DNA from: Escherichia phage kaaroe
Length of the DNA: 64,000 nucleotides
Sequence record: MN850574.1
Direction: 5' to 3' (one strand)
Part shown: piece by piece, positions 52,961 through 53,377 of the stretch
Position numbering within the stretch: the first letter of the stretch is position 1
Layout of the letters: the number at the start of each line of letters is the position of its first letter
Notes under the pieces: generated by a model
What the model saw: only the letters and a program-made list of their open reading frames with translations
What the model was told of the DNA's origin: nothing
The model's database searches: none
Translations under genes and position numbers: made by a program

Positions 52961-53377
52961 ATGGAATTTAAAGCAATTCAAATCATGAAAGGTGAGCATA
53001 AAGGTACTATTATTGGTGGACACTTCGCGCCTATGATTCTGGTATCCGAACCGAAAGCACTGATCGGCGCTAAAGTAATTGTTAGTAAAACTTTCGCAGA
53101 AGACCATGTGATCACCGCAGAAGACGTCGATTCGCTGGCACTGCACACAACTAGCTTCCGTCCGGTGATTGTAGATAATGGTGCTCCGGTTGTCGAAGGT
53201 GGTCAGCATTTGAATGTTAACGTATTGTTACGAGAAATGTTGCTGGACGCTGTTGAACATCCTGAGAAGTACCCGCAGCTTACAATTCGCGTTTCTGGTT
53301 ACGCAGTGCGCTTCAATAGTCTGACTCCAGACCAGCAACGTGATGTTATCGCTCGTACCTTTACCGAATCTCTCTAA
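52961..53377 (+). CDS. grcA: autonomous glycyl radical cofactor GrcA/YfiD-like
   Basis: C-terminal [12 protein letters not shown]...[38 protein letters not shown] including the RVSGY glycyl-radical motif. Confidence 0.9.

Follow-up and report, generated by a model that had tools for sequence, protein, structure and literature searches.

The open reading frame at 52961..53377 (+) of Escherichia phage kaaroe is very probably the Krischvirus (RB49-type) ortholog of the T4 gene vs.6, whose product is Y06I: a gene long resident in phages, inherited in place and coding for a spare part for pyruvate formate-lyase (PFL). All positions are those of the window, the 64,000-nucleotide stretch of sequence record MN850574.1 that was analysed. 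The vs.6 coding sequence starts with ATG, encodes 138 amino acids followed by a stop codon, and is matched exactly by a single entry in the ORF listing. A Shine-Dalgarno-like sequence, AAGAGGTGA, was read at 52949..52957 (+), 3 nt 5' of the ATG. Codons 1-76 (52961..53188, +) make up a fast-evolving N-terminal part of the phage type, and codons 77-138 (53189..53374, +) a C-terminal glycyl-radical module that mimics residues 698-759 of PflB. Sequence and alignment predict that the radical is borne by G113 in the motif RVSGYAV, encoded by the GGT codon at 53297..53299 (+). Directly 3' of vs.6 is an intrinsic-terminator-like hairpin (53387..53421, +) with a 10-bp stem, a 5-nt loop and a T-run. This hairpin is kept in every Krischvirus allele compared and carries a terminator annotation in G2248.

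The gene lies on the early-gene strand. The late promoter TATAAATA was searched on the + strand, where its nearest occurrences are at 48092 and 58267 and none is near vs.6. A scan for sigma-70-like sites returned 11 against 9.1 +/- 2.9 expected from shuffled sequence; since such matches are no commoner than in shuffled sequence, no promoter is named for vs.6. One of these consensus-only matches, at 53405-53433 (TTGGCT, 17 nt, TATGAT, with a TG extension), shares sequence with the vs.6 terminator (3' arm and T-run) and lies upstream of nrdC.11 (53464-54162). A tRNA scan of the window found none.

A sequence-only reading of the same DNA had named the ORF a homolog of the glycyl-radical cofactor GrcA (YfiD), and profile and structure searches bear this out. 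The translated ORF contains, at its end, the peptide quoted in that reading. The Pfam model Gly_radical (PF01228) matches residues 78-119 with 61.3 bits (cutoff 22.2), and PHROG 1209 is matched over its full length (residues 3-138 on profile positions 1-121 of 121, E=3.4e-51). The solved structure of E. coli GrcA/YfiD (6owr) was matched at E=5.8e-33 and the C-terminus of PFL at E about 6e-27. In the NCBIfam ranking, GrcA, GrcA3 and PFL stand on top, with other glycyl-radical enzymes far lower. The NCBIfam GrcA model TIGR04365 (InterPro IPR011140) covers residues 37-138 on model positions 28-126 with 133.8 bits, which is below its curated equivalog (trusted) cutoff of 170 bits. On the same model E. 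coli GrcA scores 234 and T4 Y06I 151.1, likewise under the cutoff. Because the biochemically validated T4 Y06I also falls below 170 bits, the cutoff divides bacterial from phage members and not functional from non-functional ones. Homologs of the vs.6 type were found in 1,580 phage records, from T4-like, T5-like, Klebsiella, Aeromonas and Vibrio phages. The kaaroe protein fits the GrcA family as structurally defined, and it also fits the phage Vs.6/Y06I group.

The radical glycine that had been read in RVSGY is retained as G113, in RVSGYAV. Its column is invariant in an alignment of 47 homologs and, counted from the C-terminus, it aligns with G102 of GrcA and G734 of PflB. The kaaroe Vs.6 protein contains zero cysteines, so catalysis on its own is impossible and the protein must work as part of another enzyme. 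The PFL model TIGR01255 is matched only at positions 683-744 of 744, with 88.4 bits against a cutoff of 994. Since just the tail of PFL is matched and cysteines are absent, the label 'pyruvate formate-lyase' that several database records attach to vs.6 is a misnomer.

The 2.4-kb stretch around vs.6 is 98-99.4% identical at the nucleotide level to RB49, Phi1, GEC-3S and ELT3, and about 50 further E. coli/Shigella Krischvirus (Straboviridae) phages fall in the same range over the same 2.4 kb. From these matches, the window can be assigned to an RB49-like Krischvirus. Several Krischvirus records annotate vs.6 as 'autonomous glycyl radical cofactor'. The gene order in RB49 is endolysin - vs.8 - 41-aa ORF - vs.6 - nrdC.11 ... 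regB - vs.1 - vs - tk.4 ... tk, and that in T4 is e ... vs.8 - vs.7 - vs.6 ... regB - vs.1 - vs - tk.4 ... tk. The same order is found in metagenomic relatives in which Vs.6 is only 64-70% identical in amino acid sequence. The conserved position, from vs.8 to the regB-vs.1-vs-tk.4-tk block, makes the kaaroe ORF the positional ortholog of T4 vs.6/Y06I. The T4 gene that the earlier reading had called analogous is therefore closer than that term implied.

Several features of the neighbourhood were also recorded. The 41-aa ORF at 52825-52950, a homolog of RB49p100, is very basic, overlaps the vs.8 stop codon by one base and takes the place of the unrelated 109-aa vs.7 of T4. Its conservation extends to the Krischvirus loci examined, with no annotation in G2248. 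The endolysin gene (51888-52277) occupies the position of T4 gene e and appears to code for an M15-family peptidase, not a T4-type lysozyme, judging from a 'peptidase M15' annotation in JK32 and a Pfam Peptidase_M15_4 match on the ortholog in locus L127. M15-type endolysins are already known from RB49-like phages. In the spacer between the endolysin gene and vs.8, a 9-bp hairpin (ACGGGGAGA ... TCTCTCCGT) lies at 52292-52322; it has no T-run and is absent from the output of the terminator scan.

The N-terminal part is 44% identical in amino acid sequence to T4 Vs.6 and 32% to E. coli GrcA. It carries the phage-only motifs KAIQI..GEHKGTI and (I/V)VSKTF.ED. In the 47-sequence alignment, the phage N-terminal type reads MKA.Q(I/V)..G.H.GTI ... 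(I/V)VSKT(F/L).E and the bacterial type MITGIQITKA...NSFWLLD...ARC..AK. The kaaroe N-terminus is assigned to the phage type by a signature common with T4. Relative to both T4 and E. coli, it contains two clade-specific insertions, one of about 12 residues and one of about 5. The AlphaFold model of kaaroe Vs.6 (mean pLDDT 78.8) shows residues 1-76 as a small four-stranded beta-sheet with pLDDT of about 75-85. This predicted sheet differs from the corresponding half of E. coli YfiD, which is disordered in solution (PMC8683613). A fold search with the N-terminal half returned just insignificant KOW-like and ribosomal-protein-like matches (E > 0.5). By analogy with residues 1-60 of YfiD, the N-terminal part is predicted to help binding to cleaved PFL and activation; given the insertions and the modelled sheet, its recognition role could differ from that in YfiD.

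The function proposed for Vs.6 draws on the biochemistry of its relatives. The radical of PFL resides on G734, and oxygen cuts the chain at this residue (PMC8683613). According to the account in that article, which cites Wagner et al. (2001), PFL-AE installs a glycyl radical in YfiD and T4 Y06I, and these bind O2-cleaved PFL and restore its activity. YfiD depends on its N-terminal 60 residues to bind cleaved PFL and to be activated efficiently, but not for catalysis (PMC8683613). The C-terminal module of the AlphaFold model superposes on 6owr (92% identical residues in 60 columns, E 1.1e-6) and also on the C-terminus of PFL (2pfl). In kaaroe, Vs.6 would be made from the early-gene strand during infection, and the host radical-SAM activase PflA would generate a glycyl radical by removing a hydrogen at G113. 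The C-terminal module would dock into host PFL whose tip has been removed by oxygen at G734, with the N-terminal part possibly aiding recognition of the damaged enzyme. Docking would restore the conversion of pyruvate to acetyl-CoA together with formate within a microaerobic or anaerobic host unable to renew its proteins. The benefit to the phage would be sustained fermentative acetyl-CoA and ATP under fluctuating oxygen. Since a virulent phage stops host protein synthesis, it is proposed that a spare part made by the phage itself keeps the fermentation supply running.

The sequence-only reading had explained the host-like C-terminus by recent capture from an enterobacterial host, and this part of it did not survive nucleotide comparison. 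Two figures would agree with the capture of grcA, whole or as its 3' half alone: the C-terminal module is 90-94% identical to host GrcA in amino acids, and GC content is 0.48 inside vs.6 against about 0.40 around it. The 3' 186 nt of kaaroe vs.6, however, are 73.1% identical to E. coli grcA (pS 0.79), 73.1% to E. coli pflB (pS 0.70) and 72.0% to T4 vs.6 (pS 0.77), the two E. coli K-12 genes being taken from NC_000913.3 for alignment. Synonymous sites are at or near saturation in all of these comparisons. Of the 56 residues common with E. coli GrcA, 23 have the same codon in both genes; codons drawn according to the codon usage of the window would lead one to expect 23.4 +/- 3.5 (z=-0.12). The same test on T4 vs.6 gave 57/59 codons identical to E. 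coli grcA (z about 9). A blastn search with vs.6 in 5,426 complete E. coli genomes found nothing above 75.7% (3' 185 nt). Among 81 grcA/pflB sequences searched for a bacterial donor (the best 80 of at least 577 bacterial loci in species representatives of GTDB), nucleotide identity reached at most 78.5%, with a lowest pS of 0.61 and a median identity of 72.6%. In other phage genera, no 3' module above 80% nucleotide identity to that of kaaroe was found outside Krischvirus. Saturated synonymous divergence together with chance-level codon identity argues against recent transfer from any donor sampled, and the phage-type N-terminus and the gene position conserved across T4-related phages also speak against it. 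Recent capture is thus regarded as extremely unlikely for kaaroe.

The near-identity of the C-terminus to host GrcA and PflB is instead attributed to purifying selection, as the module must fit both the host enzyme and its activase. Between kaaroe and RB49, pN of vs.6 is 0 in the N-terminal part and 0.007 in the C-terminal part at pS 0.09-0.11; the gene is under purifying selection. Comparison of codon usage with the neighbouring genes, which the earlier reading had suggested, placed the whole-gene GC3 (0.406) inside the spread of the window's ORFs (0.368 +/- 0.051), but is uninformative: GC3 cannot discriminate host origin because that of E. coli grcA (0.417) nearly equals that of the kaaroe gene. 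GC3 is even along kaaroe vs.6 (0.395 in the N-terminal and 0.419 in the C-terminal part), unlike in T4, although GC3 alone cannot decide the matter. The hint at the host clade that had been seen in the C-terminus also proved weak, as Salmonella-type and Kosakonia-type GrcA match the module at 58/62 residues, E. coli K-12 at 56/62 and a Vibrio likewise at 56/62.

Host capture does occur elsewhere, T4 being the positive control. Over its last 62 codons, T4 vs.6 (L004:7558-7746) is 95.7% identical in nucleotides to E. coli K-12 grcA (L002:4067-4255), with a dS of 0.08. The boundary is sharp; upstream of it, identity to grcA falls to 50% and GC3 from 0.40 to 0.19. The 3' 189 nt of K-12 grcA have counterparts of 95-99% identity in 629 phage records, RB69 and many Tequatroviruses included; over these 189 nt Krischviruses reach only about 76% and T5-like phages about 74%. 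The T4-type 3' module looks like the result of gene conversion from the host, either recent or recurrent. An inference of recent host capture would hold for T4 and fails for the RB49 lineage.

Within Krischvirus, the 3' half of vs.6 is itself variable. The segment 53164..53385 (+) is replaced by divergent alleles in relatives, kaaroe having the RB49-type allele. The first 210 nt of vs.6 are 95-100% identical to kaaroe in ten relatives compared. Over the last 186 nt, identity to kaaroe is 97-98% in RB49 and ECD7, 89% in G2248 (a hybrid), 74-75% in JSE, KFS-EC and FL15, 70% in MIZ4, and 60-66% in JK32, phiS and a metagenomic contig. At least five alleles of the 3' half, 25-40% divergent in nucleotides, are thereby found among sister Krischviruses (loci L125, L126 and L129-L134). 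The breakpoints are sharp, on the left at about 53164 or about 53200-53209 and on the right at about 53385; the patch between them is 60-75% identical in JSE, KFS-EC, FL15, MIZ4, JK32, phiS and locus L126, with flanks of about 96-100%.

Immediately downstream, 53413..53450 (+) corresponds to an insertion site for homing endonuclease genes in relatives; in kaaroe it is empty and consists of spacer only. JSE, phiS, L126, MIZ4 and JK32 carry here a free-standing homing endonuclease gene of 175-197 aa, between the vs.6 terminator and the ribosome-binding site of nrdC.11. Of 58 Krischvirus records, at least 13 show an insertion of 500-575 nt after vs.6. In KFS-EC and FL15, the JSE-type allele occurs without the endonuclease gene. 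Free-standing homing endonucleases of T4-related phages, namely SegF, SegG and MobE, cause localized marker exclusion and co-conversion (PMC2993671), and the pattern at Krischvirus vs.6 is the one that would be expected from these processes. It is plausible, if somewhat short of probable, that the 3' half of vs.6 is an exchangeable cassette, often linked to an endonuclease in Krischviruses and overwritten by grcA in T-even-type phages, with the kaaroe allele as the susceptible or ancestral homing target. Next to the same gene cluster, endonuclease insertion is polymorphic at a second place: between the endolysin gene and vs.8, JK32, JSE and G2248 have an extra ORF of 576 nt (L125:2742-3317, L129:1-138, L132:1-126), which the G2248 annotation calls an HNH endonuclease and that of JK32 an ERF-type (AP2-like) protein. 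Kaaroe and RB49 have a 62-nt spacer alone at this place (kaaroe 52278-52339).

This turnover raises an older form of replacement, in which the 3' module came from host grcA/pflB or from another phage long ago and then drifted to saturation at synonymous sites. Exchange of the module is frequent at exactly the same boundary, with the Krischvirus 3' alleles sitting on near-identical 5' halves; the T4 module is host-derived, and the kaaroe module combines a GrcA-like tail with the PflB-like REMLLDA. No donor was identified, though, and such an event would be indistinguishable from vertical descent under strong constraint. Kaaroe and the JSE-type allele have in common the unusual D124 (PDQQ), which suggests descent inside the phage clade. 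Ancient replacement is accordingly judged unlikely, while still the strongest competitor of inheritance in place.

A different job for the protein is less likely still. It might act as a decoy or sink for PflA, as a partner of TdcE or of the phage anaerobic ribonucleotide reductase, or as a modulator of fermentation. In the account of PMC8683613, the biochemistry covers YfiD and Y06I alone, with PFL alone as partner; the Krischvirus N-terminal part has its clade-specific insertions, and relatives tolerate divergent modules, such as that with NAGHHLNANV in JK32. Against this, the module is closest to GrcA and PflB in the NCBIfam ranking, its radical motif is exactly that of PFL, and the ortholog T4 Y06I rescues PFL according to the same account (PMC8683613). 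A PFL spare part, descended within the phages, is the reading retained here.

The gene vs.6 is a known auxiliary metabolic gene, already annotated in the genomes of RB49-like coliphages and with a biochemically characterized ortholog in T4, and the finding on kaaroe vs.6 is in that respect ordinary. Its value lies in a correction: near-identity to a host protein is, taken alone, no evidence for recent transfer, and here the synonymous positions are randomized while the protein is host-like. If any part deserves further work, it is the turnover of alleles in the 3' module. If the cassette reading is true, the host-mimicking module would be a hot spot of recombination, both between phages and between phage and host. 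A literature search, which was not exhaustive, found no earlier description of vs.6 mosaicism or of conversion between T4 and host grcA. The contrast with T4 and the endonuclease-linked turnover suggest vs.6 as a natural system for studying the upkeep of a host-mimicking module.

Among known systems, the closest is Vs.6 of RB49 (RB49p099, NP_891670.1), with 99.3% amino acid identity and equal length, neighbours and terminator; it differs from the kaaroe protein by one residue (V86I in RB49), and the genes by a few synonymous changes. T4 Vs.6/Y06I has a C-terminal module identical to that of kaaroe at 54/62 residues, and phage-type N-terminal motifs are found in both. The T4 protein is shorter (120 aa), without the two N-terminal insertions present in the kaaroe protein. 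As in the SegF, SegG and MobE cases, relatives of kaaroe have an HNH-type or other endonuclease beside a divergent patch in a conserved coding sequence; unlike in those cases, the kaaroe site itself has no endonuclease gene.

E. coli GrcA/YfiD (b2579; PDB 6owr) is, like kaaroe Vs.6, a small stand-alone protein with the radical glycine in RVSGYAV and without catalytic cysteines. The near-identity of the last 60 or so residues and the divergence of the N-terminal half, both stated in the sequence-only reading, hold on real alignment: the C-terminal module is identical at 56/62 residues and the N-terminal part at just 20/63 (32%). The last 38 residues agree at 37/38. Unlike GrcA, the kaaroe protein has phage-specific N-terminal motifs and insertions, and its gene is carried by a virulent phage. 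The C-terminal domain of PflB (residues 698-759; PDB 2pfl, 1h16) is identical to the kaaroe module at 50/62 residues, REMLLDA and the entire radical loop being common to both. Unlike PflB, the kaaroe protein is without the catalytic barrel (about 750 aa) and without Cys418/Cys419, and its module corresponds only to the last 62 of the 759-760 residues of PflB. The kaaroe module thus mixes GrcA-like residues, in its tail, with the REMLLDA of PflB.
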